Part shown: positions 4,168 to 56,498 of the stretch, in pieces
Layout: each line of letters opens with the position of its first letter
How positions within the stretch are numbered: the first letter of the stretch is position 1
Source: Salinispira sp.
Lineage (GTDB): Bacteria > Spirochaetota > Spirochaetia > DSM-27196 > Salinispiraceae
Assembly: GCA_965226555.1 (NCBI GenBank)
Contig: CBDDDG010000022.1
Span: 32,001 to 96,000, forward strand
Reading direction: 5' to 3'
Length of the DNA stretch: 64,000 nt
The notes under the pieces: generated by a model
The model's input: only the letters and a program-made list of their open reading frames with translations
Database searches by the model: none
What the model was told of the DNA's origin: nothing
Translations under genes and position numbers: made by a program

Positions 4168-5235
4168 ATGAAGAAAATTTTCTTTGCACTTGTATTCTTC
4201 ATTCTTGCCTTTTCTCTCTTCGCCGGCGGCGAACAGGAAGGAACGGCACAGATGAAGGTAGGTATGGTAACCGATGCTGGTACCATTGACGACAAATCCT
4301 TTAACCAGGGAACCTGGGAAGGAATTCAAATGGCCGCTTCAGAGTTTGAGCTCGACATCCGATATCTCAAACCGACCGGCACGACAGAGGCAGATTACAT
4401 ACTTGAAATTTCCAATTTGTACGATGGGGGCTACACCTTCATTGTTACTCCCGGTTTCAAGTTTGAAACAGCCATTTTTCAGGCTCAGGAAGAATATCCC
4501 GATGCTCAATTTGTGCTCATCGACGGCGCTCCCCACGCAGGCGATTTTACTCCGGTTGTCGGAGAAAACACGGTATCAATTTTCTTTGCCGAGCACGAAT
4601 CGGGTTTTCTGGCGGGAGCCGCGGCTGCCCTTGAGCTGAAAGAAGGTAATTTCGGTTTCATTGGCGGATTGGCAATTCCCCCTGTACAGAAATTCAACTG
4701 GGGATTTCAACAGGGTGTTTCCTATGCGAATGAAAATTTCGGCACAAATATCACTATGGATGCTGAAAATGTCATATATCAGGGATCCTTTGACAATGTA
4801 GCCGCAGGTCAGCAAATTGCTGCCCAGATGTTCGACAAGGGTGTTGACGCAATTTTCTGCGCAGCCGGCGGTGTTGGTGTTGGCGCCATTAACGAGGCAA
4901 AAAGCCGCGCGCGCTCAGGCAGCAATGCCTGGATTATTGGTGTTGATGTTGATCAGTACGCAGACGGCATTTATGAGGATAACAAATCCATTATTCTCAC
5001 TTCGGCTGTAAAAAAAGTTGGTCAGGCAGCCTACAGCATGATTGATGCTTTTATATCCGAAAGTTTTCCGGGTGGTGAAACATTGATTTTTGCTGCCGCA
5101 ACCGGCGGTATTGGTATTCCCTCGGAAAATCCAAACCTTTCGGACTCTGTTGAAAGCACTGTTGGCGAACTGCTTGACGGCATTATTTCCGGTACCATTG
5201 CCGTAAGTAGCGAACAGGGAAATCTTATTCCCTAG
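4168..5235 (+). CDS. BMP family (PnrA/TmpC-like) substrate-binding protein
   Basis: DAGTIDDKSFNQ, IIGVDVDQ; AGGAGG RBS; FAGG signal peptide. Confidence 0.88.
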   Translation: MKKIFFALVFFILAFSLFAGGEQEGTAQMKVGMVTDAGTIDDKSFNQGTWEGIQMAASEFELDIRYLKPTGTTEADYILEISNLYDGGYTFIVTPGFKFETAIFQAQEEYPDAQFVLIDGAPHAGDFTPVVGENTVSIFFAEHESGFLAGAAAALELKEGNFGFIGGLAIPPVQKFNWGFQQGVSYANENFGTNITMDAENVIYQGSFDNVAAGQQIAAQMFDKGVDAIFCAAGGVGVGAINEAKSRARSGSNAWIIGVDVDQYADGIYEDNKSIILTSAVKKVGQAAYSMIDAFISESFPGGETLIFAAATGGIGIPSENPNLSDSVESTVGELLDGIISGTIAVSSEQGNLIP

Positions 5236-37556: not shown

Positions 37557-39695
37557 ATGAATGCTGCCGAACAAGGAAAAAATATGATATGGAAGGTTTC
37601 CCGGCCGGCTCCTGAAGATATAGACTTATTTACCCGAAAATATGGCACTAACCGGTTAACATCTGCCTTATTGCTGGCTCGGAACATTGTGGAACCCGAG
37701 CAATTAAAATACTTTCTGAACGATGATCTGCGCTTCCTGCATAACCCCTTTCTTTTTTCTCATATGAATACGGCAATAGGCCGAATTAAGGTTGCGATAT
37801 CGGAAAATGAATACGTTCTCGTTTACGGCGACCGCGATGCCGATGGAATTACTGCGACAGTACTCCTTGTTTCTGCCCTGCGGGATGAGGGGCTCACGGT
37901 TTTTTGGGAAGTACCGATGGGTGATGATCCCTATTCATTGCAGAATAGTATTGTTGAAAAATATGCGGAGAAGGGTGTCACGCTCATTATTACCGTAGAC
38001 TGCGGAATAACGAATGTTCAGGAAATTTCTCATGCCCGTACATCGGGAATTGACTGCATAGTGATCGATCACCACAACCAGGGAGAAGAACTTCCGGAGG
38101 CTGCGGCAATAATCGACCCGAAATGCAGTTTTGACCGATATCCCTTTGAAGGTCTCAGCGCTGTCGCCTTAGTTCTGAAATTACTTACCGCTCTTGACAT
38201 TTCGAGGAGCGATTTTTACAACCAACCCATGTGCTTCCTTAATCTTCGCCCGGGGAACGAGAGTATAATTATTGAAGCTGTGAAACTTTTCAATCTTGTT
38301 GAGGAAGCTCGCATAAGTGAAACGATAGTTCCGGGTTCAGGTAAACATCAGCTTGATCGAATTATCGACTTCATAAAGGATCAGCCAATCATCGTCTATC
38401 AACAGGATATTCAGATGAAACTCCTCTCTGAGGTATTTGGGAATTCCTTCGAATTTATGATGACGGATATTACCGAAGAAATATGGACTGCATTTCCCGC
38501 TCTCAGAGGTAAGAGCCTTCTCCGTATGCTGGAGGGCTCAAAACTCAATAAATTCAGCGCAAAACCGATGCAGGAAATTGATGCCGCCGTACAGCTTCTC
38601 ACAAGTTACTTTTATGCGAAAAATCCATTCATTCTTGAAAATATGAAGGCGCGTCTCGACATTACCGCGCTTGGTCTTATTGCAGACATGATGCCCCTCT
38701 TCGATGAGAATCGAATAATTATCCGCCACGGACTCAGATTACTTGAGAAAACACCGCGCAAGGGCCTGCGCGAACTTATGGCGCGTCTGAATGTACTTGG
38801 CTCTCCGCTAACCTCAACCACTGTTTCATGGAAACTTACTCCGGCAATTAATGCGACAGGACGTATGGGTCAGCCTGATCTCACCATTACATTGCTGCTT
38901 GAAGAAGGTAACATTGTTGAGTTGGCAGAGAACATTCATCAGCTCAACGAAAAAAGAAAACAATTGGGTAATACTGCCTGGGAATTTTCTCTCCCTGAGG
39001 CAAAAACGTCGCTTGAAAATTATGAGGGTCTGTTGATCTGTGTTTCGCATGAGTCAATAAGCAGGGGAATAACCGGTATTCTGGCAGGAAGATTGAGCAG
39101 ACAATTCAATGTGCCGGCAATTGTTCTGGCTATTGTTGACGATAGCTATGTTGCTTCTGTGCGCAGCGCGCGGAATTTTCATGTTACCGATTTTCTGGCG
39201 CAGTTCTCGCATATTTTTGATGATTTTGGCGGACATGATGCAGCAGGGGGGTTTCGCTTCCAAAAGGATCGCTATGATCAGTTTCTGAGTGAACTCAAAA
39301 GCAGGGCAGCTCTTATTGAGCTGGGGGGAGAATCGGAAATAGTGCTGAATGTGGATATGGAGCTTCGGGCTTCGGAGATTGGTGAGGAACTTGAGAAATT
39401 TCAGGAATCAATGGCTCCGGCGGGTCAGGGTTTTCGGCAAATTCAGTATGCGGTACGTAAGGCACGGATTGTAGATGCGAAAATTATCGGCAAGAATGCC
39501 GAGCATCTCAAGTTGCTTTTGGCTGTTGGAAATCAGAAATGGCCTGCCATTTACTGGTCATCGGCAGATCGATTTCAGAGGGATTTCACTGCAAATTCAG
39601 TGGTCGATTGTGTTTTTACCCTCGAACGGAATTATTTTGCCAATAATTCAGTTCTTCAGCTGACAATTCTCGACATTCAAAATCATGAAGCATAG
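37557..39695 (+). CDS. recJ: ssDNA exonuclease RecJ with an internal insertion
   Basis: GDRDADG, TVDCG, DHH, INATGR, GGHDAAGG. Confidence 0.92.
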   Translation: MNAAEQGKNMIWKVSRPAPEDIDLFTRKYGTNRLTSALLLARNIVEPEQLKYFLNDDLRFLHNPFLFSHMNTAIGRIKVAISENEYVLVYGDRDADGITATVLLVSALRDEGLTVFWEVPMGDDPYSLQNSIVEKYAEKGVTLIITVDCGITNVQEISHARTSGIDCIVIDHHNQGEELPEAAAIIDPKCSFDRYPFEGLSAVALVLKLLTALDISRSDFYNQPMCFLNLRPGNESIIIEAVKLFNLVEEARISETIVPGSGKHQLDRIIDFIKDQPIIVYQQDIQMKLLSEVFGNSFEFMMTDITEEIWTAFPALRGKSLLRMLEGSKLNKFSAKPMQEIDAAVQLLTSYFYAKNPFILENMKARLDITALGLIADMMPLFDENRIIIRHGLRLLEKTPRKGLRELMARLNVLGSPLTSTTVSWKLTPAINATGRMGQPDLTITLLLEEGNIVELAENIHQLNEKRKQLGNTAWEFSLPEAKTSLENYEGLLICVSHESISRGITGILAGRLSRQFNVPAIVLAIVDDSYVASVRSARNFHVTDFLAQFSHIFDDFGGHDAAGGFRFQKDRYDQFLSELKSRAALIELGGESEIVLNVDMELRASEIGEELEKFQESMAPAGQGFRQIQYAVRKARIVDAKIIGKNAEHLKLLLAVGNQKWPAIYWSSADRFQRDFTANSVVDCVFTLERNYFANNSVLQLTILDIQNHEA

Positions 39696-40725
39696 ATACC
39701 TGTACATTTTTTTTCTCATCGGCTTTCTTCATCTCATTCATGGCAGCCCGGCAGCGGAAAGTCTTTCTGATGCTGAAGACCAGTTCCAAGACCAGTCCCA
39801 GAATGCGCCGGACATTTCCGCCGAACACGTTCCGATTCCGGAAAACGCATTCTTTCCCGGCTTCATCATTGCTGAAGACAGGCTTTATCCGGGCTCCCTG
39901 TTTGAAGCATTTATGTCTTACCATGAAGAGGAGCCCGTGCTGTACATAATGGACGGTGAAAAAATTCTGTACGCCATCCCGCCGGTGCCCGTTGACGATA
40001 CAGAGAATTTTGAACCCTTTCTGTACTTCCTTCAGGGACTCGATAGTACAGTCAGCCCCGGAAATTATCAGCTGCGCATGAAAACTCAGGAAAGTGATCG
40101 TATACTTCACGAGTATTATATTGAAATTTATCCACGGGATTTTCACAGTGAGGAAATCGTGCTGAATACAAAACTCACCGAAATTCGGACTGATGCAAGT
40201 TCCCGCCGTATTAATGAGGGAAGGGAACTGATTGAATTATTGGAAACCGTAAAAAACTCCAGCCGATTCATGCTCGGTTCTTCAGAGCGGAGGCATCCAT
40301 TACAGAATATAGTATATACATCATTCTTTGGCGACCGCCGTGTTTATGTCTATGACAACGGTAATACGGCAACAAGTGTTCATAATGGACTGGACTATCG
40401 CGGGGCTGTAGGGGAAACAATTTTTTCCCCATTTAACGGGAGGGTGCGTATGGCGAAGGATCGAATTGTTACGGGAAATACCGTAATCCTTGAACACCTG
40501 CCGGGGACATATAGTTTGTACTACCATCTTTCTTCAATGGATGTCGCGCCGGGTGATGATGTGATAATTGGCGATGTTCTCGGAACCATTGGGGCTACCG
40601 GTCTTGCGACGGGGCCGCACCTCCACTGGGAAATTCGGGTGCGGGGAGTGGCTGTTGACCCTGAAATATTTCTTGAGGGTGTTTTACTTGACAGAGGACG
40701 TCTCAGTGATATACTGAGCAGATAG
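39685..40725 (+). CDS. M23 metallopeptidase
   Basis: HNGLD, YYHL, GATGLATGPHLHW. Confidence 0.88.
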   Translation: MKHRYLYIFFLIGFLHLIHGSPAAESLSDAEDQFQDQSQNAPDISAEHVPIPENAFFPGFIIAEDRLYPGSLFEAFMSYHEEEPVLYIMDGEKILYAIPPVPVDDTENFEPFLYFLQGLDSTVSPGNYQLRMKTQESDRILHEYYIEIYPRDFHSEEIVLNTKLTEIRTDASSRRINEGRELIELLETVKNSSRFMLGSSERRHPLQNIVYTSFFGDRRVYVYDNGNTATSVHNGLDYRGAVGETIFSPFNGRVRMAKDRIVTGNTVILEHLPGTYSLYYHLSSMDVAPGDDVIIGDVLGTIGATGLATGPHLHWEIRVRGVAVDPEIFLEGVLLDRGRLSDILSR

Positions 40726-43328: not shown

Positions 43329-44207
43329 TTGACGAAAATTAAGAATAATGTTACGATAAAAACTATTAGCCAAAGGGGAATTATCAAATACATGCGGTCT
43401 ATTTTAGTTGTTCATAAAAAAGGTATACATACAATACAGCAATGTATGCCTCCTTGTCAAATGCTTATTGCTGCTATATTATGCTTTTTTCTCCCCTACA
43501 TGATCTATTGCGATTCATTGTATGATGATGGGCTTGAGCAATTTTTGTATAACAATCCCCGGGAGGCAGCCGCTCTTTTTCAACTTTCTCTGCAGGAAGG
43601 GAATACAGAAGAGGATGTATTCATTTATCTCGCATATACCTATGAGCAATTAGGCTTTTATGATCAGTCAATATCAACTCTGCAGGATGGTCTGAATTAT
43701 GCGGAAAAAAAACGAGATGTTTTCTATTTTAATCTTGGCAATCTTCATGTGTATAAGAAGGAATTTCACGAGGCCATTGAATATTTTAATCTTGCCATTA
43801 AAACTCAGTCCCTGTATGCTGAGGCCTATCTGAATAGGGCGAATGCCCAACTGCAGCAACAGAATTTTCCTGCTTCACTTAGCGATTACCGGACATTTAT
43901 CAACATCGTTCCCGATCACCGGCTTGTGCCAGTTGTCAGGCGTATGATTGAAGCTATGAGCGCTGAAATGCTTGCAGCGGAAACTCGGAAAATGGAAGAA
44001 GAACGCCTTGCGGCGCTTGAAGCGGAACGCCGCCGATTAGAAGCACTTGAAGCTGAACAACGGGCGCAGGAAGAAGAGTTACGGCGCCATGAGCTGCTCA
44101 ATAGCATTTTGGGCAGCCTTAACACAGCAGGGGAAGAAGGAAACACCCTTGGGGCGGGTACTGAAGAAATATCGAATACAGAAGACGATTTTATGAGGGC
44201 AGAATAG
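43329..44207 (+). CDS. TPR protein with coiled-coil tail; true start probably downstream
   Basis: TPR motifs such as FNLGN and AYLNRANA. Confidence 0.75.
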   Translation: MTKIKNNVTIKTISQRGIIKYMRSILVVHKKGIHTIQQCMPPCQMLIAAILCFFLPYMIYCDSLYDDGLEQFLYNNPREAAALFQLSLQEGNTEEDVFIYLAYTYEQLGFYDQSISTLQDGLNYAEKKRDVFYFNLGNLHVYKKEFHEAIEYFNLAIKTQSLYAEAYLNRANAQLQQQNFPASLSDYRTFINIVPDHRLVPVVRRMIEAMSAEMLAAETRKMEEERLAALEAERRRLEALEAEQRAQEEELRRHELLNSILGSLNTAGEEGNTLGAGTEEISNTEDDFMRAE

Positions 44208-44211
44208 TAAT

Positions 44212-46011
44212 ATGAACAAAAAAATTATTCCCGGAGCCCTGCTGATTACAGCAGGAATTATAATTGGTATCGTTTTTTTTGCGATGAGCGCCAATAATGC
44301 TCCTTCGCGGGTAGAGAACATTCTTACTCTGGCAAAAGATTATATTGAGCAGGCGGAATATGACAGAGCACTGGACCTTCTGGAAGATATTCTGATTGAT
44401 GATCCGGAAAACGAAAACGCAATATATCTCAGAAATGTGGCGATTGAACAGAAAACGGGTGGGGAAGTACATAGCGAAAATGTGATTGCCGATGATAGCG
44501 CCGATGTTGATGGCGCCGATGATATTGCCGATGTTGATGGCGCCGATGATAGCGCCGAACAAAGAGAATTCTCCGATCCGGCAGATGTTGACGAAGGCCG
44601 CCGCGTAGCCGATCGGGAAGTTCAGCGGCAGATATATACTCTTCTTGAGGAAGCCCGGCAGTTACAGGAGGTACGGAATTTCATTTCTGCTAGGGATAAA
44701 ATTCAACAGGCCATCGGTCTGAATGAGGATTTTGCCCTGCCGTATTCACGTCTCGCAGAAACTTATCTGGAAGAAGACATTGAAAATTCGGAAAATCGGA
44801 GAAGGGCTGCCGAACTTGCCGAAATTGCAATTAATAAAGATTCTGAGCTCTGGGAACCATACAATGTACTTGGCAGCATTTTTCATGCCTCAAAATTATA
44901 TGAACGGGCAATTCAGTCCTTCAGCATTGCAGCCGATCTCGAAGGAGCCAGCGATGAGGTGCTCTATGCTCTTGGAAATGCGCAGTTTGATGCACGGCAG
45001 TTCAGCGCAGCCCGAAAGAGTTATGAGAGCTATATAAGCCGAAATTCAGATAATGTAAACGCATTTTTTAATCTTGGTTTGACATTTGAACGACTCAATC
45101 TCCATTCACCTGCCATCGAAAATTATCAAAGGGCACTCAGAGTCCAAAGTAATTATGCGCCGGCATATAATCGTATTGGCGAGCTTTCATTGCTTCAGGG
45201 AGACAGCGATGCGGCTCTCAGTAATCTCCGTCAGGCGCTGATCCACGATAATAATGCGCGTAATAACCGAGCTATTGCTCGGGTTTTTTATGAGCGGGGA
45301 GAATACGAACAGGCCCTGGATTTTTTTCTGACCGTACTCGCCTTTGAGCCCAATCGTGCGCAAAATCAGTATAACATTGCAACAGTACTGTTGGATCTCA
45401 ATAGATCCGATGAAGCTCTGCGCTTTGCTGAAGAGGCAGTACGCTTAGACTCTTCGGTTCCTGAGTATAACTATACACTTGGTCTTGCGCTGAAAGCAGT
45501 TGATAATCTGGAACAGTCCCAGTCCTTTTTTCTTGTTGCTATTGCCCAGCAAAACAGTTATATCAAACCACGAATTGAAGTAGCCGAAATTTTTATTATT
45601 AAAGAAAATTATGACGCTGCTCTTCAGGAACTTCTGATCGCATTTCGTCTGGATTCTTCACGATCCGATGTAAATAATAATCTTGCAACAATTTATCGAC
45701 TCAAAGGGGACTATGACAAGAGTCTGGAACACTCATCATTAGCCATCGGGGCAGAACCTGACTCTGCTCCGATCCGCTACAACTTTGCACTCACACTCAT
45801 AAAACTGCAGCGCTTCGCAGAGGCTGAGTCCAATTTGCGGCAAACAATTGGTATTGATGATATGTATTTTGATGCGTATATACGCCTTGGAGAGGTACTC
45901 ATTGCTCAGGGAAAAAATGACAAGGGGGTGAGGATCCTGAACGATCTCATTCAGCGGGCAATTGATTCCGAACAAGCTAGGGAAGCTATGAATATTATTA
46001 ATTCACTGTAG
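44212..46011 (+). CDS. Membrane-anchored multi-TPR protein
   Basis: N-terminal TM, acidic linker, many TPR units. Confidence 0.82.
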   Translation: MNKKIIPGALLITAGIIIGIVFFAMSANNAPSRVENILTLAKDYIEQAEYDRALDLLEDILIDDPENENAIYLRNVAIEQKTGGEVHSENVIADDSADVDGADDIADVDGADDSAEQREFSDPADVDEGRRVADREVQRQIYTLLEEARQLQEVRNFISARDKIQQAIGLNEDFALPYSRLAETYLEEDIENSENRRRAAELAEIAINKDSELWEPYNVLGSIFHASKLYERAIQSFSIAADLEGASDEVLYALGNAQFDARQFSAARKSYESYISRNSDNVNAFFNLGLTFERLNLHSPAIENYQRALRVQSNYAPAYNRIGELSLLQGDSDAALSNLRQALIHDNNARNNRAIARVFYERGEYEQALDFFLTVLAFEPNRAQNQYNIATVLLDLNRSDEALRFAEEAVRLDSSVPEYNYTLGLALKAVDNLEQSQSFFLVAIAQQNSYIKPRIEVAEIFIIKENYDAALQELLIAFRLDSSRSDVNNNLATIYRLKGDYDKSLEHSSLAIGAEPDSAPIRYNFALTLIKLQRFAEAESNLRQTIGIDDMYFDAYIRLGEVLIAQGKNDKGVRILNDLIQRAIDSEQAREAMNIINSL

Positions 46012-47824: not shown

Positions 47825-49231
47825 TTAAAATAACGAGAAACTTGTCTCCAATCGAGTTGAAACTGTCCAGTAGCGCGGGTTGCCATCAGCATCTATTTTG
47901 TCTCCTGGTGTTGAATCATATCGAAGATCATAAATAAACCCAACAGCTACTCCACCAGTGGCATATCCTATTTTGGCAGTTATAATAGCATTCTCAGGAG
48001 AAATTAGATCAGCGATGTCTCTGATATACTGTTTCCGGTAGCTTGCTCCAATAGTGATGCCTCCGAGTAGCTCAGGATCAATGCTGAAATTTGCGGTTAG
48101 GGTTGGATTAAGGTGGTCTATATCCGAATTGTCTGTGAATGAACCTTCCAATGTGGCATCGAGCACTATCTGACTATCCAGAATATCCACACCAAGTTTC
48201 GCAAGCCACCCGATGCTATCTGGAATACTCACTGTTGCATTACCGTCCTTGTATATTTCCCATCGTTGTGCGCGATAAAGGTCGTATGATGAATTGAAGT
48301 ATTCGGGAATAAAATTATTGCCGAGAAATCGTACCTGCGCACCATAGGTCATGATATCAAAAAGCTCTCCACCCAAGCCGACCATTCCTCCAAGGTTTGA
48401 ATTCTGCACAACAAGGTCTCCAAAAATAGCAAGGCGCAGAAGGTTTTCGGAGAAAAGAGGAAACCGGATATCGCCTCCGAAAATAAACACCGCTTCCTCG
48501 CTGTCGAAGTAATTGCTATAGGCTGATTTCTCAGCTTCTCTTTCATAGTAGAAAGGATCTGTATCAATTACCCCTGTAAAGCCAAGCTGAATATCTTTGA
48601 TGGCGGGAACATCAAGCCAATACAGTGGTCGAATAAAAAAGCGTCCGCCAATGACATCGAAGGCTGCAAGATTACCGATAATGGTTTCAAGACCAATGTA
48701 GGGAAAGTCAAACAGTTTTCCATCAAGGTCAAAAGATAATCCTGTTATCCGTCGGTTAGGGAGAAAGCTGGTATTACTATAATCGGATACGATAAATCCA
48801 TTACCGAGCTTAAAATTACTGATACTGCCCGCTGCCAGATAAAATGGATCGCCCTTGTAGCCAAGGTGTATATATCGGATAATGGGAAGATAAATATCCA
48901 GAAAACTTCGTCCATTGTCTGGATCGGGCAGCCAATCTTCCTCGCGTATGCGGAATCCTGTTGTTCCATCGGCGTTTTCGATTGAGAAGTTTATTTCGAT
49001 ATCCAGACCTATTCCGAAGGTGCCAACAGAAAAGTCGGGACGTATTTTGAGATTATTCCAAGTTTCCTCTTCTCCGGTAATGGAATTGTCCAGTGACAGT
49101 ATGGAAAATCCCAAACCCAGACCAAAATCCACTCCGTCTCCGGGACTATCGCCAGCAGGTGAATTTTCCTGAGAAATAAGTACAGTTGTTGTGAATAGCA
49201 ACAAAATGATCACTACATGTTTCAAACGCAT
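47825..49231 (-). CDS. Putative outer-membrane beta-barrel protein
   Basis: Signal peptide, amphipathic strands, C-terminal ETSFSLF; AGGAG RBS before ATG 49231. Confidence 0.7.
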   Translation of the reverse strand: MRLKHVVIILLLFTTTVLISQENSPAGDSPGDGVDFGLGLGFSILSLDNSITGEEETWNNLKIRPDFSVGTFGIGLDIEINFSIENADGTTGFRIREEDWLPDPDNGRSFLDIYLPIIRYIHLGYKGDPFYLAAGSISNFKLGNGFIVSDYSNTSFLPNRRITGLSFDLDGKLFDFPYIGLETIIGNLAAFDVIGGRFFIRPLYWLDVPAIKDIQLGFTGVIDTDPFYYEREAEKSAYSNYFDSEEAVFIFGGDIRFPLFSENLLRLAIFGDLVVQNSNLGGMVGLGGELFDIMTYGAQVRFLGNNFIPEYFNSSYDLYRAQRWEIYKDGNATVSIPDSIGWLAKLGVDILDSQIVLDATLEGSFTDNSDIDHLNPTLTANFSIDPELLGGITIGASYRKQYIRDIADLISPENAIITAKIGYATGGVAVGFIYDLRYDSTPGDKIDADGNPRYWTVSTRLETSFSLF

Positions 49232-49255
49232 ATGAGCTCCTGAAAATAATTTTAA

Positions 49256-49345
49256 AGAAATTCTTGCATTGGAAAATTGCGCTTGCGCAATTTCCAGTAG
49301 CCAAAATTTCAAATCTGGAATGCTTTTTCTATGTTGAGCATTCTC
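49256..49345. repeat. Family A copy + TCTGGAATGC..GCATTC hairpin module
   Basis: 49256-49310 copy; 49314-49345 module as at 34093. Confidence 0.85.
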
Positions 49346-49438: not shown

Positions 49439-52400
49439 TTAATATGATATCTCCAGTATAAGGTTGATTTCAAGGCCGATACTATGGGCATAGGCATAGT
49501 CTTCAAACTTTACCGACTCCGCTGTGTATGCAACTGCAATATCGGCATTGAATTTTCCCAGATCAGAAAAAAACAGAATGCTTCCATGCCGAAGGATGAT
49601 TGAGAAACCTGGTTTTTCGGAAAGGGACAGAGCCGTTGCGGAGGAATTTTCTCTGAGAGCAGTGAAGCGAAGCGAAATCGCTTCCTCATGTTCAAAACCT
49701 AGGCTTTCATTTTCGGTATTCAGATTTTCAAAACCGGTACTCGCAGCCATATTCGCAGCCGTGTTAAGCCGCGTCATCCACAGCAATGATGACGATATCC
49801 CCAACGAGAAGGATGCCTCACCGCGTGAGGCAAATTTCCAGTCGACAGTATTCCGCAGTTCCGAAAAGGGCTGAAGCTCGAAAAGAACGGGCATTAGTTC
49901 TCCGCCTATGCGCCAGTCTTCAATATTATCCAGATTATGCCTGTACTGAAAATTCATTGAAAATTCATCACTCTCATAGAATGAAAAAATGGGTTCTCTG
50001 CCGAATTTTCCAAAGAGATTCAGCGCCTGCCAGGTAATAAGGGCCTTGAGTGATCGCTCGTCCGATTGAATGCCCTGTATCCATTCGAGCTTTCGAATGA
50101 TATCCAGTTCTGCGCTTCGCGGAATGATGAGGTCATACATTGACGGATTCAAGTCTCGCCTGAAAACAATGCCCATTTCATATTCCTGAAATGTTCTGCG
50201 GGGATCGCGAAAGACGCTATCGTTGCCTGCCGATGCAAAGAATGAGCTGCCGGCATCATCCGAAAATACGCCAATTATGTATAGCGGCAGAAAAACATAG
50301 GGGTTTATTGCGGCATGTTCAAAGAGCAGTTCGAGTGGATCAAAAAAATTCTCGGAATATGAACTGCTTTGGTGAAAAAACTTCTGCCTGCCGTTTATTA
50401 TAACATCAATCCCTGAATCCGAATAAAACCCTGCCTGAAGGGTTTGCGTGAAATTCTCATTCAGATTGGGGAGGGAATCGAATGAGCTGAGGGCATGCGC
50501 GCCAAGTTCACCGGAGAAATTTTCTCCTCCGAATCCAATTGATATATTAATATCGGTATTTCTCCGAAAATCAGCGCTGCTCAATTGTGTCCAATCCAGC
50601 AGCGCAATGCTATTAAAATAATTTGCCATATATGACGATTCAAAAATTTCTTCGGCAGGTTCTTCTTCATTAATGCTGAAAAGCAATGCCGTATGGAGGG
50701 CGGGATTTTCGCCAAGGGTAAAATCAATATCCCAATTTCTCATCCGCTTATCTTTGATTGCGCTGATCTGATAAGAAAGATTCAGATAAAACCATGGCGC
50801 AGGGTCCAAGGTAATTCCAAAATTTTGACTGACTCCCGCAGATTGTTTTCCTTTCATCCATTGTTGGCTGTAGATGTTTGTAAATTTCAGTCCCCGAATG
50901 GCATTGAAGGTGAGTGAATGCGAGGAATCTATGTGAATTTGATCATCCAGATCCGAGTAATAGCGCAGGAAAATGGAACTGAGAAAAAACGGGAGGTAGC
51001 CCGTGAGTTGAATGCTGCCGTCAAGCCCCGCGGCAGCGCCAAAACCGGGGGAGAAGGCTGCGGCGCTAAGGTCCAGCGAAGTGATCCCCATATGAAAAAC
51101 GCTGTCGGGGAACAGAACTGCCGATTCGGGAGTCCATTGCATACGCGCCTGTCCTCCGCCGGAAAAAATCTCCCTGCTATCTGAGAATTTCGGCGGGCGG
51201 AGAAGCAGCGATCCTGTTCCCTGCGCCATGAGCGCAAAACTGAGATATTTGAGTTCTCCCTTTCCGAGGGAATGCGGGAAGGGGGCGGTATATTCAATTT
51301 CTCCAGAGTGGAGGAGGCTGATGGTTTTTTCAACAAAATTGATGCGGAGTGTTTTCCATTTGTCTTCGGAGTCAACGGATAATTGAGCCAAATGGGTTCC
51401 GTTAATTGCAACCGTAATGCTTTCCTGAGCGGCAAGTTCTTTTCCGTTAAGTTCAATTTCCAGAGATTCATACAGATCCTGCGCAATTGAGTTAAGCGGG
51501 AAGCGTAATTCCGAGGAAGAATTCCCTGCCCAGCTGAAGACATAATGATCCGCATTCTGGTCAATTCGAGCTGTTTCTCCGAGCACAATAACATTTTTTC
51601 TCCGAATTTTCTGATCTCCAAAGAAAATTCTCCCCGCAGCTCCCCCGGAATTGCCGTCAGAAACGAGAATGATCCTCAGCGACCGAAGGTCTTTCAAGCG
51701 GGCACTTTCAACAGCAGTAAGATTGTATGACAGATTCTGCCAGCTGCCGACATCTGAAGCATCCAACAAACCAAGATAATGGCTCACTATGGCTGCCGGA
51801 TTATCTCCATCGAGCCTTCCGTTTCCGTTTATGTCTTCTGTTAATCCCTGCCAACCCTCATAATATGCCTGACCCGGATATGCGGCAAGGAGTTCGCCTG
51901 ATGCGCCGGTAAAGGGTATTCCCTGCTGCTCCGGGCGCGCCTGTGAATCGAGATTCAAATCGCCATCAATATCTTCATTCAATTCACCTGCCTGCAGGAA
52001 GACATGTACCCCCCCGTTGAGCGATTCCGGAAATACCGAAATAGTGAATCCGCTTATGAAATCGGATACGGCGCTGCTGTTGCTGCTCTGATACCCGACC
52101 CACGGCTCAGCGTCCGTTATCGTGAATTCCAATGCCGCAAGAGTGCCGGAAATACTGTCGTTCTCAGCAGGGAATGCGGGGTAGGGGCCGATCGCAGTCG
52201 CAAGTCTTTCGGGTTCAGCGGTGTTTTGGAAGGTGTCACGCGGAAGAATAATACCGTTCTGTCGGAAATTTCTGAAAAATTGCTGCCCGCGATTGTTGCG
52301 GTTCAGGTTCGGGAGGATCGATATGATTGCCGCGCAGTCTCCAGCGCATGAATTTTCCAACCGGACTGTTTCAGGAGCCGCCGAAGGGAAGAGTGATGCG

Positions 52401-54334
52401 GCATTGATCGCAAGAAAACTGCTGTCGGAAGCTGCCTGAAGAGGGTGGAAAATTCCGTTGGTATCGGTAACCGTGTACTTAAGGCTTCCTTCAATGTCTG
52501 CTTTCAGAAATTGCCCGTCAAGATGATATGCCCCACTCAGTTGAATATGCGAGGGTCCGCTCGGAGAATTTTCTCCTTCTCGGGGAAGGCTCAGCGACCC
52601 GTTCAGGGCAAGTTCAAGGGTATCATTTTGAGAGAGAAAAAACCGGTTTCCGATCGCTGCGCTCAGGCTGGCAAACTGTCCCGCCTGATCGGGGGTTCGG
52701 TAGACAATGAGGATATCATCAAGAGGTCCAATGTTTTCGGGAAAGATCAAAAGACCGTCAACAATTTCAACATTGTCAACAAACCGTGAATTTTGATATA
52801 CGGAAAGGCTTCCGGGTACTATTTTGTCCTCAATTCTCAAACCTTCTCCAATTTTTGAACGAAATTGCAGAAGGGTATCGCTGAGCGTAGCTTCGGTGTT
52901 GCTCAGGAAGCCGGGAACGTAGAGTCGGGCGGTTTCAGCGTCAATATCCAAAAGCGGATAGCGGATTTTCCATGGGTCGGCGCTTCTTTGTACGGAATTT
53001 TTCGGAGAAAGCTGCACACCGCCCGCTGTATTTCGGAAGGGAATGGCCGTATATGCGCCATTTGCCTTCCTGAGTAGCGCATCTTCAATGTTGGCATCGA
53101 CAGTATAGTAGGCCTGAATTTCAAAGGGCGAGAAAAGCCCCGGCTCATAGAGTACAAGAGCCTGCACATCGCCCGCATCTACACCGCCCTGCGCCCCCGC
53201 CTGCCCACCGCTCCGGTCCTTATTGAGAACGCGGGAAAAATCATTAAGAGTAATGCCCGGAGCCGCAGATGTGAATCCGTATAGCGCATTGAGCGGAATA
53301 ACAAAGTGCTGTTCAAAGTCTCCTCCCGGCTGTAGGCTGAAATCAACAGAATTTTTGCTCATTTCATAGTCGGAATGTTGGGAATGTTCGGATGCCTGTA
53401 AGCGAACAACCGGTATCTGTCCGACATAACTGCTATCGCCAACAGAAATTCCTCCAGCGATATAGTGAACCAGCACCCGTCCCTCGGGCAATATGGAACT
53501 CAGGCTCAACTCTCCAAGCTCCGGCCTGAAACCATAATCCTGATCCGCTGTGAGCAGACGGTAGACAATGCCATCCTCATCATGTACTGTTTCCGAACCA
53601 AAACTTCCATCCGCATCTTCCAGCCAGACCCGTAAATTCTGAGGATTTATATCCGGAAGAAGGAAGTACCTGCCCTGCACATAATCTGATACACTCTGCT
53701 CATTGATGAGGTACTCGTTATTCCCGGTAAAACGGCGCCGAACTTCATGTGCGGTATCGTAGCGAAGCATGAATTCATGGAGGGTCGATTCTGTTGCAAG
53801 AACCGCAGAAACTCCCGGGCTGCCGACAGTCCCTGTACTCATTGGTAAAAGGGGATATTGCTGAATTCCAATATCGGTATTACCAATGAGCACCTCCCGG
53901 AGCAGCCCATTGCCGTAGTATCCGAGAAGAATACTGTTATCGGTAAATCCCGATTGAAAACTGGCCTCAAAAAAAAAGTTGTTGTTTAACCACAATGATG
54001 TGAGTAAATCGACAGTATTGGTGAGGGGGGTTGATTTGAAAATTGATGGTGCGAGCGGCTGCTGTTCATAGGTTCCGTCACTTCGGGGAATCCAGCGGCT
54101 GCCGGCAGCAAAACCGAGGCGGGCCTCCCAAGAACCCAAAATAAAAAATTCTATTTCCGTGTCATCGCTTGAATAATCAAATATTGCCTGAGGAGATTCT
54201 TCAGGGTATACTATTGTTCCATCCTGTTGCAATTCCGGCAGGGTTGTCTGGGAAAATACGTGCATTCCTGATATGCTGAAGAGGAAAAGTGATATTGAGT
54301 AAAGGTAGAGTTCCCGTATGCAGTTATTCCTCAT
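49439..54334 (-). CDS. Large (1631 aa) outer-membrane protein, SprA-like candidate
   Basis: Signal peptide, C-terminal aromatic strand (LEISY), motif series recalling SprA (see findings). Confidence 0.65.
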   Translation of the reverse strand: MRNNCIRELYLYSISLFLFSISGMHVFSQTTLPELQQDGTIVYPEESPQAIFDYSSDDTEIEFFILGSWEARLGFAAGSRWIPRSDGTYEQQPLAPSIFKSTPLTNTVDLLTSLWLNNNFFFEASFQSGFTDNSILLGYYGNGLLREVLIGNTDIGIQQYPLLPMSTGTVGSPGVSAVLATESTLHEFMLRYDTAHEVRRRFTGNNEYLINEQSVSDYVQGRYFLLPDINPQNLRVWLEDADGSFGSETVHDEDGIVYRLLTADQDYGFRPELGELSLSSILPEGRVLVHYIAGGISVGDSSYVGQIPVVRLQASEHSQHSDYEMSKNSVDFSLQPGGDFEQHFVIPLNALYGFTSAAPGITLNDFSRVLNKDRSGGQAGAQGGVDAGDVQALVLYEPGLFSPFEIQAYYTVDANIEDALLRKANGAYTAIPFRNTAGGVQLSPKNSVQRSADPWKIRYPLLDIDAETARLYVPGFLSNTEATLSDTLLQFRSKIGEGLRIEDKIVPGSLSVYQNSRFVDNVEIVDGLLIFPENIGPLDDILIVYRTPDQAGQFASLSAAIGNRFFLSQNDTLELALNGSLSLPREGENSPSGPSHIQLSGAYHLDGQFLKADIEGSLKYTVTDTNGIFHPLQAASDSSFLAINAASLFPSAAPETVRLENSCAGDCAAIISILPNLNRNNRGQQFFRNFRQNGIILPRDTFQNTAEPERLATAIGPYPAFPAENDSISGTLAALEFTITDAEPWVGYQSSNSSAVSDFISGFTISVFPESLNGGVHVFLQAGELNEDIDGDLNLDSQARPEQQGIPFTGASGELLAAYPGQAYYEGWQGLTEDINGNGRLDGDNPAAIVSHYLGLLDASDVGSWQNLSYNLTAVESARLKDLRSLRIILVSDGNSGGAAGRIFFGDQKIRRKNVIVLGETARIDQNADHYVFSWAGNSSSELRFPLNSIAQDLYESLEIELNGKELAAQESITVAINGTHLAQLSVDSEDKWKTLRINFVEKTISLLHSGEIEYTAPFPHSLGKGELKYLSFALMAQGTGSLLLRPPKFSDSREIFSGGGQARMQWTPESAVLFPDSVFHMGITSLDLSAAAFSPGFGAAAGLDGSIQLTGYLPFFLSSIFLRYYSDLDDQIHIDSSHSLTFNAIRGLKFTNIYSQQWMKGKQSAGVSQNFGITLDPAPWFYLNLSYQISAIKDKRMRNWDIDFTLGENPALHTALLFSINEEEPAEEIFESSYMANYFNSIALLDWTQLSSADFRRNTDINISIGFGGENFSGELGAHALSSFDSLPNLNENFTQTLQAGFYSDSGIDVIINGRQKFFHQSSSYSENFFDPLELLFEHAAINPYVFLPLYIIGVFSDDAGSSFFASAGNDSVFRDPRRTFQEYEMGIVFRRDLNPSMYDLIIPRSAELDIIRKLEWIQGIQSDERSLKALITWQALNLFGKFGREPIFSFYESDEFSMNFQYRHNLDNIEDWRIGGELMPVLFELQPFSELRNTVDWKFASRGEASFSLGISSSLLWMTRLNTAANMAASTGFENLNTENESLGFEHEEAISLRFTALRENSSATALSLSEKPGFSIILRHGSILFFSDLGKFNADIAVAYTAESVKFEDYAYAHSIGLEINLILEISY

Positions 54335-54340
54335 CTGTGT

Positions 54341-54361
54341 ATTATAGAAACTTTTGCATTG
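54341..54361 (-). promoter_or_regulatory. Family A half copy whose terminal TA starts a TATAAT -10
   Basis: Minus strand CAATGCAAAAGTTTC-TATAAT-acacag-ATG(54334). Confidence 0.55.
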
Positions 54362-54394
54362 CCTGTACTGTCATACACTCCACAGGAAGTGAAC

Positions 54395-55321
54395 ATGAGT
54401 AATTTTTCGGAAAACGCATACGCATTTGTATATCGGTTGCTGTCAAATCCTACTCTTACGGCATATACTCCTTTACAAAAGGAGGAACATGTTTCTCGTT
54501 TTTTAGAGACGAATATACAGCAATTAGAACCAACACTCACTTCCGCGGCCTTTTTTCCGGGCTACACTATTGATCAAATATCCCAAATTCTTCACAAAAC
54601 ACTTCATTCCCTGACAAATGAATCTCTGCTGCCCGCAGTCAGCGCCATTATTCAGGGAATTGATTATTCATTCCTGGGTCAAATAGTGCCGATTCAGGAA
54701 GGTTCAGAGTTTATAAAAACACTAAAAACGCAGATATTACAAATTATTGAGCATTTTCTCGCCATGCCCGGTTTCAGGCAGACATTTTCAGGCAATTATA
54801 CTGCGCTGCGCTATAACATTATCGAAGGATATATGAGTGAGATATTTAAACGAAAACGCCATATTTATTATGAACTTACAAAATTTCAGCGACTCCGCAT
54901 GAATAAAACCGAGATCAAGGCATTTGTGGAAATATGCATGCTTCTTCGAGCTCTTGTCCAGATGAAGGCCTATTCTGACTCCGGCAATAATGTATCAGAA
55001 ATAGTTAGTCCGCAGCTCCGTCAGGGCATATTCGATGAACTGAAATTGAAACTTAATACTGTGCCGGTTGAAATTATCAGCAGTATCGTCAATTCTGCCA
55101 TATCTTTTCAGGAAAATTCTCAGGTTGAGACAACAGCGCGGTTGGCGGCTATTTTTTCTACCCGCGGCAAAACCTTTGCCCGTAATACAAAAATTGACCG
55201 GGGGGCAGATACACCCGACAAAAGTTGGTTTGGAATTACGAGAAGAAATTATAAGTTTTATGGTTTTGATGGCAGGATGCTTGATGAAATGTATATTATA
55301 GCTGCCGAAAATGGCTGGTAG
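54395..55321 (+). CDS. Hypothetical protein
   Basis: Long ORF; AGGAAG RBS; no recognised family. Confidence 0.7.
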   Translation: MSNFSENAYAFVYRLLSNPTLTAYTPLQKEEHVSRFLETNIQQLEPTLTSAAFFPGYTIDQISQILHKTLHSLTNESLLPAVSAIIQGIDYSFLGQIVPIQEGSEFIKTLKTQILQIIEHFLAMPGFRQTFSGNYTALRYNIIEGYMSEIFKRKRHIYYELTKFQRLRMNKTEIKAFVEICMLLRALVQMKAYSDSGNNVSEIVSPQLRQGIFDELKLKLNTVPVEIISSIVNSAISFQENSQVETTARLAAIFSTRGKTFARNTKIDRGADTPDKSWFGITRRNYKFYGFDGRMLDEMYIIAAENGW

Positions 55322-55328
55322 GGGAACA

Positions 55329-56498
55329 ATGCAAAGCGGAAAAAACACCTTTTTTGAAAATTCGATACTTATTGTCATTGTTCTTGTACTCATTCAAACC
55401 CTTCTTGAAGATGTGGCAGTTCTTGCCTCGTGGCCGGTGGAATACCGTCGTGTACTTACCATTCTTGGATTTATTTTCGACATAATATTCACGCTTGAAT
55501 TTTTTTCCCGAAGTTTTTTTGCCATTTCACAAAATCGCTTCGGGCATTATGTGCTTGAGGGAAGGGGGTGGATTGATTTTATGGTTTCTGTGCCCTTGTT
55601 ACTCTTCAGTTCCGGCCCTGAATTTTTTGCCATAGTTACTGGCGGCTTTGCCGTTTCCTTTGGCGGAATTCTCCAGGTATTGAAGGTAGTAAAGTCAATA
55701 CGCATTGCGCGAATATTACGCTTATTGCGCGTTCTGAAAATATTCCGGCGTATCAAAAACACCGAAACCGTTATGACACAGCGCCATATTGCGCGCATTA
55801 CGACAACGGTTATTGCCACAATTGTCCTTGCTCTCCTTCTGTTCACGGTTGTTGATAATTTTCTGAACATTAACGATGTATATGCCGTGTATGAAGAAAG
55901 CATTCAGGGACTTACGCAGTATATCAGCGCTAATTCAGGTTTCCTCACTTCGGATACACAATTACAAGAGGCCTATTTTGCTTCAATTCCAATTATACTG
56001 ATGGTAAAGTATGATGGGATGACTCTTTATACCCGCTACACGAACGCCGAGTATGCCCGTCAGTGGTCTATTAACGATTATGTGTATGTTCAAAAAGATG
56101 CATTAGAATTGTATATAAATATATGGTATCTGAATGTATCGGAGGCAAAAAGTAATTTGTATTTCTTTCTTATGATTTTCAGTGTGATTCTGGTTATCAT
56201 GTTTGTCTACAGCCCCCATTTTGCGCTCACTATATCGGATCCGATACATGTAATGCGAAGAGGGTTTGATGAGACTTCGTATAATCTTCAGGTTCGTATT
56301 CCCGATCAGTTCAAAGATGATGAAGTATATATTCTCTCTGAATCATTCAACAGAGATTATCTTCCCATGAAAGACAGAGAAGGACAAAAAAACCAGGAGT
56401 CGGTACTGACACTGTCTGCTGTTAATCTTGCGGATTTCGCTGATCTCGGCGCTCCAAGTGCCAACGGAGAAAATGGAGCGGCGAATGATGACCATTAA
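55329..56498 (+). CDS. Voltage-sensor-like (Ion_trans S1-S4) membrane protein with HAMP-like tail
   Basis: FDIIFTLEF, WID, KVVKSIRIARILRLLRVLKIFRR; ISDPI...DDEV..L...FN. Confidence 0.72.
   Translation: MQSGKNTFFENSILIVIVLVLIQTLLEDVAVLASWPVEYRRVLTILGFIFDIIFTLEFFSRSFFAISQNRFGHYVLEGRGWIDFMVSVPLLLFSSGPEFFAIVTGGFAVSFGGILQVLKVVKSIRIARILRLLRVLKIFRRIKNTETVMTQRHIARITTTVIATIVLALLLFTVVDNFLNINDVYAVYEESIQGLTQYISANSGFLTSDTQLQEAYFASIPIILMVKYDGMTLYTRYTNAEYARQWSINDYVYVQKDALELYINIWYLNVSEAKSNLYFFLMIFSVILVIMFVYSPHFALTISDPIHVMRRGFDETSYNLQVRIPDQFKDDEVYILSESFNRDYLPMKDREGQKNQESVLTLSAVNLADFADLGAPSANGENGAANDDH

Follow-up and report, generated by a model that had tools for sequence, protein, structure and literature searches.

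Locus and protein features

The window, i.e., the whole stretch of 64,000 nucleotides analysed, belongs to contig C22 of a Salinispira sp. genome (2.98 Mb, 93.5% complete, 6.7% contaminated). On its minus strand, at 49439–54334, lies an open reading frame of 1631 aa with an ATG start and the C-terminus LEISY directly before the stop. The frame and its C-terminus, proposed in an earlier note on this DNA, are real, as confirmed by translation. The gene is single-copy in the genome. The closest relative of the protein is 95% identical and is named Salinispira sp. The gene order is pore, 495-aa barrel, mutL. Features of the pore gene and its downstream neighbour are as follows.

49439–54334, minus strand: putative SprA/Sov-like outer-membrane translocon gene, 1631 aa (profile comparison and models)
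54251–54334, minus strand: likely Sec signal peptide, about aa 1–28 (judged by eye from the sequence)
53756–54154, minus strand: predicted barrel strands 1–7, aa 61–193, with NSILLGY and LREVLIGN (DSSP of the model)
53918–53938, minus strand: motif NSILLGY
53879–53908, minus strand: motif GLLREVLIGN
52673–53755, minus strand: folded insert 1, aa 194–554, with GRYFLLPD, YRLL..DYG and IVPGSL (profiles and model)
53657–53686, minus strand: motif DYVQGRYFLL
53462–53563, minus strand: motif YRLL to VLVHY
52796–52822, minus strand: motif IVPGSLSVY
52469–52672, minus strand: predicted barrel strands 8–11, aa 555–622 (present in both models)
51173–52468, minus strand: folded insert 2, aa 623–1054, with two acidic loops (EDIDGD, EDINGNGRLD) and a jelly-roll at its C-terminus (models)
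51959–51991, minus strand: motif AGELNEDIDGD
51809–51841, minus strand: motif TEDINGNGRLD
51671–51688, minus strand: motif LRSLRI
49448–51172, minus strand: predicted barrel strands 12–36, aa 1055–1629, with the beta-signal at the end (model)
47825–49312, minus strand: predicted beta-barrel of 495 aa, weakly ImpL63-like, downstream of the pore

All motifs claimed earlier were found, in the order and at the positions given for them, and their columns rank among the most conserved in an alignment of 120 rows (the 1631-aa protein and 119 orthologues). An aromatic last residue is also present in most full-length orthologues examined. Insert 1 (aa 194–554) is homologous to the first insert region of SprA. 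The C-terminal jelly-roll of insert 2 weakly resembles a carbohydrate-binding module (1V0A, E 0.004; 3ACF, E 0.054).

Relationship to SprA

Searched alone, the 1631-aa protein had no meaningful match in Pfam, NCBIfam or among PDB sequences, TIGR04189 and PF14349 included, and scored −3.7 bits on profile A5, built from six bona fide SprA proteins that all exceed the TIGR04189 cut-off. Since the single sequence matches no SprA profile, its link to SprA is transitive, through orthologues and structure. The profiles used were A1 (the protein and nine close relatives), A4 (nine distant spirochaete orthologues) and A7 (125 rows of orthologues). On A4 the protein scored 119 bits (reversed sequence −3.3; 200 shuffles at most 2.0), and A1 aligned to A4 with hhalign at 100% (E 3.7e-58, 758 columns). 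In the PDB, A4 matched SprA of Flavobacterium johnsoniae (6H3I/6H3J, E 5e-31), colinear over SprA 141–553 and 609–886; SprA was not among the PDB matches of profiles A1, A2, A3 and A7. Aligned with each other by hhalign, A7 and A5 matched at 100% (E 1.7e-42, 966 columns). The profile check suggested in the earlier note was thus positive by way of orthologue profiles and negative for the single sequence.

TIGR04189 (Sov/SprA) was matched by five of 24 orthologues (E 4e-13 to 3e-40) and weakly by two more, all below the cut-off (137.5 bits for the best spirochaete orthologue vs a cut-off of 200). Among the Atlas neighbours are clusters in which 12% of the members carry PF14349 SprA_N. The UniRef name of a 35% identical relative is 'Gliding motility protein SprA N-terminal domain-containing protein'. 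The 1631-aa protein is almost certainly a SprA homologue.

With SprA/Sov of F. johnsoniae (6H3I, 6H3J, 8GL6, 8GL8; TIGR04189, PF14349) the protein shares colinear homology in the N-terminal part, two folded inserts that interrupt 36 long strands (here predicted), a beta-signal at the C-terminus and presence as a single copy. It differs in length (1631 vs 2403 aa), in scoring below all curated cut-offs, and in the much reduced size of the barrel part at its C-terminus (about 580 aa).

Predicted structure

AlphaFold2 was applied to two overlapping pieces, with alignments thinned from 125 and 115 rows to 72 and 69. The models cover aa 30–1062 (pLDDT 86.4, pTM 0.78) and aa 545–1631 (pLDDT 88.9, pTM 0.62). 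The layout is 7 strands, an insert of 360 aa, 4 strands, an insert of 430 aa and 25 strands, in all 36 long strands (strand 30 consists of two DSSP pieces merged by hand). Hydropathy alternates in 28 of the 36. SprA itself is described as a barrel of 36 strands, capped outside and with a lateral opening for PorV (PMC10994853), and as too long for the AlphaFold DB (bioRxiv 10.64898/2026.03.07.710327).

In Foldseek searches SprA was the top match for both halves. Ranks 1–4 of the N-terminal half are SprA chains (E 5e-27 to 3e-16, best TM 0.52), the next match having E 7e-9. Ranks 1–4 of the C-terminal half are SprA chains as well (E 5e-20 to 6e-17; next fold 1e-8), at a TM of only 0.28–0.30 and an rmsd of 18 Å; LptD appears at E 3e-6 or worse vs 5e-20 for SprA. 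An unrelated large beta-barrel, LptD- or TamB-like, with a likeness to SprA due to chance or to a short shared domain, would agree with the lack of any SprA-profile match when the sequence is used alone. It is nevertheless highly improbable, given the colinear profile–profile match over 966 columns, the lead of SprA over the next fold by 8 to 18 orders of magnitude in both halves, and the 36 predicted strands. Neither a lack of similarity to SprA nor an LptD- or TamB-like fold, either of which would have spoken against the earlier proposal of a shortened SprA homologue, was found; that proposal is supported by the orthologue-bridged profiles and by Foldseek. A capped, 36-stranded outer-membrane barrel is predicted. 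It would be closed and laterally gated, the modelled halves themselves being open sheets.

Distribution of the putative pore

One large open reading frame was found with profile A1 in 139 of 301 Spirochaetota genomes, and with profile A2 in 117 of 201 genomes of the same class. The pore was not detected in families f6 (0/7), f18 (0/53) and f31 (0/6), and was found in one of 37 genomes of f23. Family f3 presumably represents the treponemes, f18 the leptospires. Among 80 of the 123 loci confirmed in a GTDB pattern scan, the sources were Spirochaetota, Elusimicrobia/Endomicrobia, Poribacteria, Zixibacteria, Cloacimonadota, Gemmatimonadota and other groups. Of 68 sequences, 61 entered an unrooted FastTree, seven divergent rows of Spirochaetia having been removed because of gaps. 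In the tree the Spirochaetia group together on a long branch, apart from a group of the non-spirochaete sequences (0.956). The two separate groups fit an old residence in Spirochaetota, the direction not being shown by the tree.

Several loci were of unusual form. In genus g3 the pore is much shorter, 1137–1175 aa (L048:8319–11741, minus strand; L179, L180, L181), with the beta-signal kept and the cargo described below co-occurring. Thirteen treponeme-type loci (L036:8100–14351 and L037:7937–13882, both minus strand; L166, L167, L169, L171–L178) carry a long SprA-like frame with an extra N-terminal region that ends like DinB. After the DinB-like part come a basic patch, a hydrophobic stretch resembling a signal, and the SprA-like part. 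Pfam and NCBIfam identified DNA polymerase IV in two of the fused loci; a separate, abutting dinB gene is present in six other loci. Were the fused product cleaved, the polymerase would stay attached to the inner membrane. In two genomes from outside the spirochaetes (L073:11016–13453 and L129:6311–9016, both plus strand), the pore is followed by a protein whose tail is like the C-terminal domain (CTD) of type IX secretion system (T9SS) substrates. In L073, an unclassified genome, this protein comes directly after the pore together with a PorV-family barrel; in L129 it is PorZ-like. At a loose threshold (E up to 1) a TIGR04189 signal below the cut-off was seen in Thermus thermophilus.

Giant protein with a terminal FlgD-Ig domain

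The candidate cargo was traced from FlgD_ig searches in five genomes. Giant proteins of 2309, 3703 and 1329 aa in three relatives have an N-terminal hydrophobic leader and a terminal FlgD-Ig domain. The gene in Salinispira sp. is located as follows.

C12, ending at 4685, plus strand: candidate cargo gene (FlgD_ig search and tail profile)

This gene is broken across frames at the contig start. At five listed sites, contigs from public runs differ from it by a single-base indel; three of these differences were also seen in a second study, and the frame breaks point to assembly error. Among relatives the open frames of the cargo are 1,100 to 7,462 aa long. TIGR04183 weakly matches two of four tails at the extreme C-terminus (E 5e-4 and 5e-3), below the cut-off, and gave no match in the Salinispira sp. 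genome; unlike that of T9SS substrates, the spirochaete CTD is of the FlgD-Ig type and below the TIGR04183 cut-off.

A tail profile, A11, was made from four cargo proteins (three of the 55 class genomes below contributed) and gave 112 hits over the 301 Spirochaetota genomes. Pore and CTD cargo are both present in the same 37 of 55 Spirochaetia genomes and both missing in the same 18, these 55 genomes being related and the 18 negatives amounting to about seven lineages. Within genus g9 alone, 11 genomes have both and 5 have neither. The 18 pore-negative genomes stayed negative with a Treponema-tuned pore profile (controls positive, 2/2). In the 30 best loci the CTD ends, without exception, 0–2 residues before the stop, after a shared region of about 500 aa. 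The six-frame translation of Salinispira sp. contains one terminal CTD, and 36 of the 37 pore-positive Spirochaetia genomes have a single match each. Outside this class the correspondence is looser. Several families of Spirochaetota carry 6–14 or more CTD proteins in each genome, all three f25 genomes have the pore and no CTD match at E 1e-5, and genome G034 has a weak CTD match and no pore match. The shared C-terminal sorting domain that the earlier note proposed to look for is represented by a terminal FlgD-Ig/T9SS-like domain, which tracks the pore in 55/55 class genomes.

Candidate carrier of the UPF0164 family

A single gene of the UPF0164 family, the search for which had also been proposed, was found in Salinispira sp.

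C14:130266–131549, minus strand: UPF0164 gene, sole copy in the genome

The protein matches NF033709 PorV_fam below the cut-off (E 8.7e-16, 58 bits; cut-off 90). PF19572 PorV has no match in the genome (control positive). UPF0164 is single-copy in all 37 pore-positive Spirochaetia genomes vs present in three of the 18 negatives. One of the pore-negative genomes, G094, has five copies. A control barrel, located in the N-terminal part of C21:192896–196777 (minus strand; L231:4897–8778), is present in 45 of the 55 genomes, including 8 of the 18 pore-negatives and 16/16 of g9. Since the control barrel is kept in pore-negatives, the pattern of pore and carrier is not just a matter of assembly quality. 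The control region is often a stand-alone frame of 345–416 aa. Both C21:192896–196777 and C10:575541–578183 (minus strand) encode tandem FlgD-Ig/CHU_C (type B CTD-like) repeats with an OmpA domain last.

The predicted complex of UPF0164 with the cargo tail of Salinispira sp. scored 0.83 (best control 0.16); of the reference pairs, 116/157 solved and 2/215 mismatched ones reached the mark. The runs agree in at least 76% of their contacts, with a partner pLDDT of 81 or more. Since PorV–CTD complexes have already been solved, this pass shows likeness and not binding in the cell; binding of the cargo CTD by the UPF0164 barrel is a prediction of the model. The candidate carrier resembles PorV/PorQ proteins (E 8.7e-16), and in the predicted complex it grips the terminal Ig-like domain as PorV does its CTD substrate (PMC10994853). 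Unlike PorV, it lacks a PF19572 match and has a C-terminal helical tail. One carrier with one giant cargo recalls SprB–SprF, i.e., Type B substrates with dedicated carriers (PMC12635249).

In Salinispira sp. the genes for pore, carrier and cargo are each on a separate contig. Divergent from UPF0164 (L233, C14:131606–139879, plus strand) are genes for a protein of 1139 aa that Pfam does not match and for a BNR/Ig/HAMP/SpoIIE protein of 1617 aa; in many relatives, too, a large secreted-looking gene is divergent from UPF0164.

In Treponema pallidum the UPF0164 proteins TP0548, TP0856, TP0858, TP0859 and TP0865, of the same Pfam family as the proposed carrier, are termed 'PorV/FadL-like' (PMC13749626). 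The number listed there equals the five copies of G094, a 1.14-Mb genome in which neither pore nor CTD cargo was detected; genomes with the pore have one copy. A barrel of the PorV/PorQ family in Brachyspira was read as FadL-like (bioRxiv 2025.01.03.631275).

Neighbouring genes

Relatives of the downstream barrel lie at most three genes from the pore in 62 of the loci examined, usually paired with a FecR-fused paralogue. In most relatives this paralogue is placed between the barrel and mutL; it is not found at the Salinispira sp. locus. ImpL63 is annotated as a cytoplasmic-membrane protein, and the downstream family looks like an outer-membrane barrel. Divergent from the pore gene, at 54359–56498 of the window (plus strand), are genes for a 320-aa protein and an Ion_trans/HAMP-like membrane protein, found upstream in 56 and 54 loci, respectively. 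Near mutL are two TPR proteins and an M23 peptidase (43329–46011 and 39685–40725 of the window, plus strand). In 17 loci of other Spirochaetota an M23 gene is directly upstream of the pore.

The proximity of the downstream family in these 62 loci, together with the CBM-like domain in the lid and the long, divergent Spirochaetia branch, would suit a SprA-derived barrel that no longer exports and acts as a static receptor, a scaffold or a large-solute pore with ImpL63-like barrels. The downstream family is present in 128 of 301 genomes. In f3, however, it occurs in one of 34 genomes (27 with the pore), and in the pore-less families f31 and f18 in 6/6 and 22/53. As this distribution does not track the pore, the barrel is a conserved neighbour only and not a strict partner, whereas the CTD cargo does track the pore. 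A non-exporting function is accordingly improbable.

Energy chain and proposed export

GldK and GldM were not found above cut-off in 4/4 Spirochaetia genomes, the Bacteroidota-labelled control G475 being positive. GldN was not found in five genomes, a result with no positive control. Among motor, hub and accessory components, the search covered these three proteins. The PorK–N/GldL/M components sought on the earlier suggestion are thus not found as far as GldK and GldM are concerned, and the spirochaete system is not a canonical T9SS. From SprA/Sov systems it differs in its Spirochaetia host and in GldK and GldM not being found. In F. johnsoniae, energy is reported to be needed for the release of carrier and substrate (PMC10994853; PMC12635249).

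The protein is probably the pore of a minimal, T9SS-like exporter, a SprA/Sov-like translocon serving one giant surface protein; export is proposed from genes and models. Observed homology, strand pattern and gene co-occurrence are combined here with a predicted barrel fold and a predicted carrier–cargo contact. The core of an undescribed spirochaetal export system, as envisaged in the earlier note, is supported by the co-occurrence of cargo and carrier and by the predicted carrier–CTD complex. By analogy with F. johnsoniae, the cargo would cross the inner membrane by Sec, and its C-terminal FlgD-Ig/T9SS-like domain would enter the pore from the periplasm. The CTD would then bind to loops of the one UPF0164 (PorV-like) barrel, which would be docked laterally on the pore. 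Cargo and carrier would leave together, and the cargo would probably remain attached to its carrier in the manner of Type B substrates. A GldLM/GldKN chain is probably not what drives release. The driver may instead be carrier binding, or an unrecognised partner on the C-terminal helical (TPR-like) tail of the carrier.

A true SprA homologue could also be part of a broader exporter with further substrates (surface lipoproteins, or proteins whose tails escape A11) and an unrecognised hub or motor, the giant CTD protein being one client or a structural part. The families of Spirochaetota with 6–14 or more CTD proteins per genome are in line with this, as are a motor and accessory search of three proteins and the energy chain needed for release in Bacteroidota (PMC10994853; PMC12635249). 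Against it stand the one terminal CTD of Salinispira sp., the single match in 36 of 37 positive genomes, the lack of any TIGR04183 match, and the absence of GldK and GldM in 4/4 Spirochaetia genomes with the control above cut-off. A broader exporter is therefore unlikely, though less so than a barrel that has ceased to export.

Significance

The T9SS has been reported as restricted either to Bacteroidetes or to the FCB group. A survey found it in 60 of 97 Bacteroidetes genomes and in none of the other clades (PMC4793230), and a 2025 account infers that it first evolved within the gliding machinery (PMC12635249). Related literature includes PMC11358297 and PMC12483993. No description of a spirochaetal SprA homologue or of a pore–carrier–cargo system was found in full-text searches of largely open literature.

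It is quite conceivable, if on balance slightly doubtful, that SprA pore, PorV-like carrier and CTD cargo constitute an ancient, motor-independent core that is widespread outside Bacteroidota (in Spirochaetota and, by pore alone, in Elusimicrobiota, Poribacteria, Zixibacteria, Cloacimonadota and Gemmatimonadota). In Spirochaetia, among them treponemes of the mouth and the rumen, it would have been pared to one surface protein of 1,100–7,500 residues. The Gld energy chain would be a later addition in Bacteroidota, and the five UPF0164 barrels of T. pallidum would be orphaned carriers.

With a pore–carrier–cargo core without GldKM in about half of the sampled spirochaete genomes, the need for an energy chain and the origin of the T9SS become testable. 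UPF0164, usually discussed as a family of FadL-like transporters, would gain a concrete alternative role. The pore of about 1140 aa in one treponeme genus would be a tractable minimal translocon. For treponemes, the system offers a candidate route and a candidate substrate for surface display.
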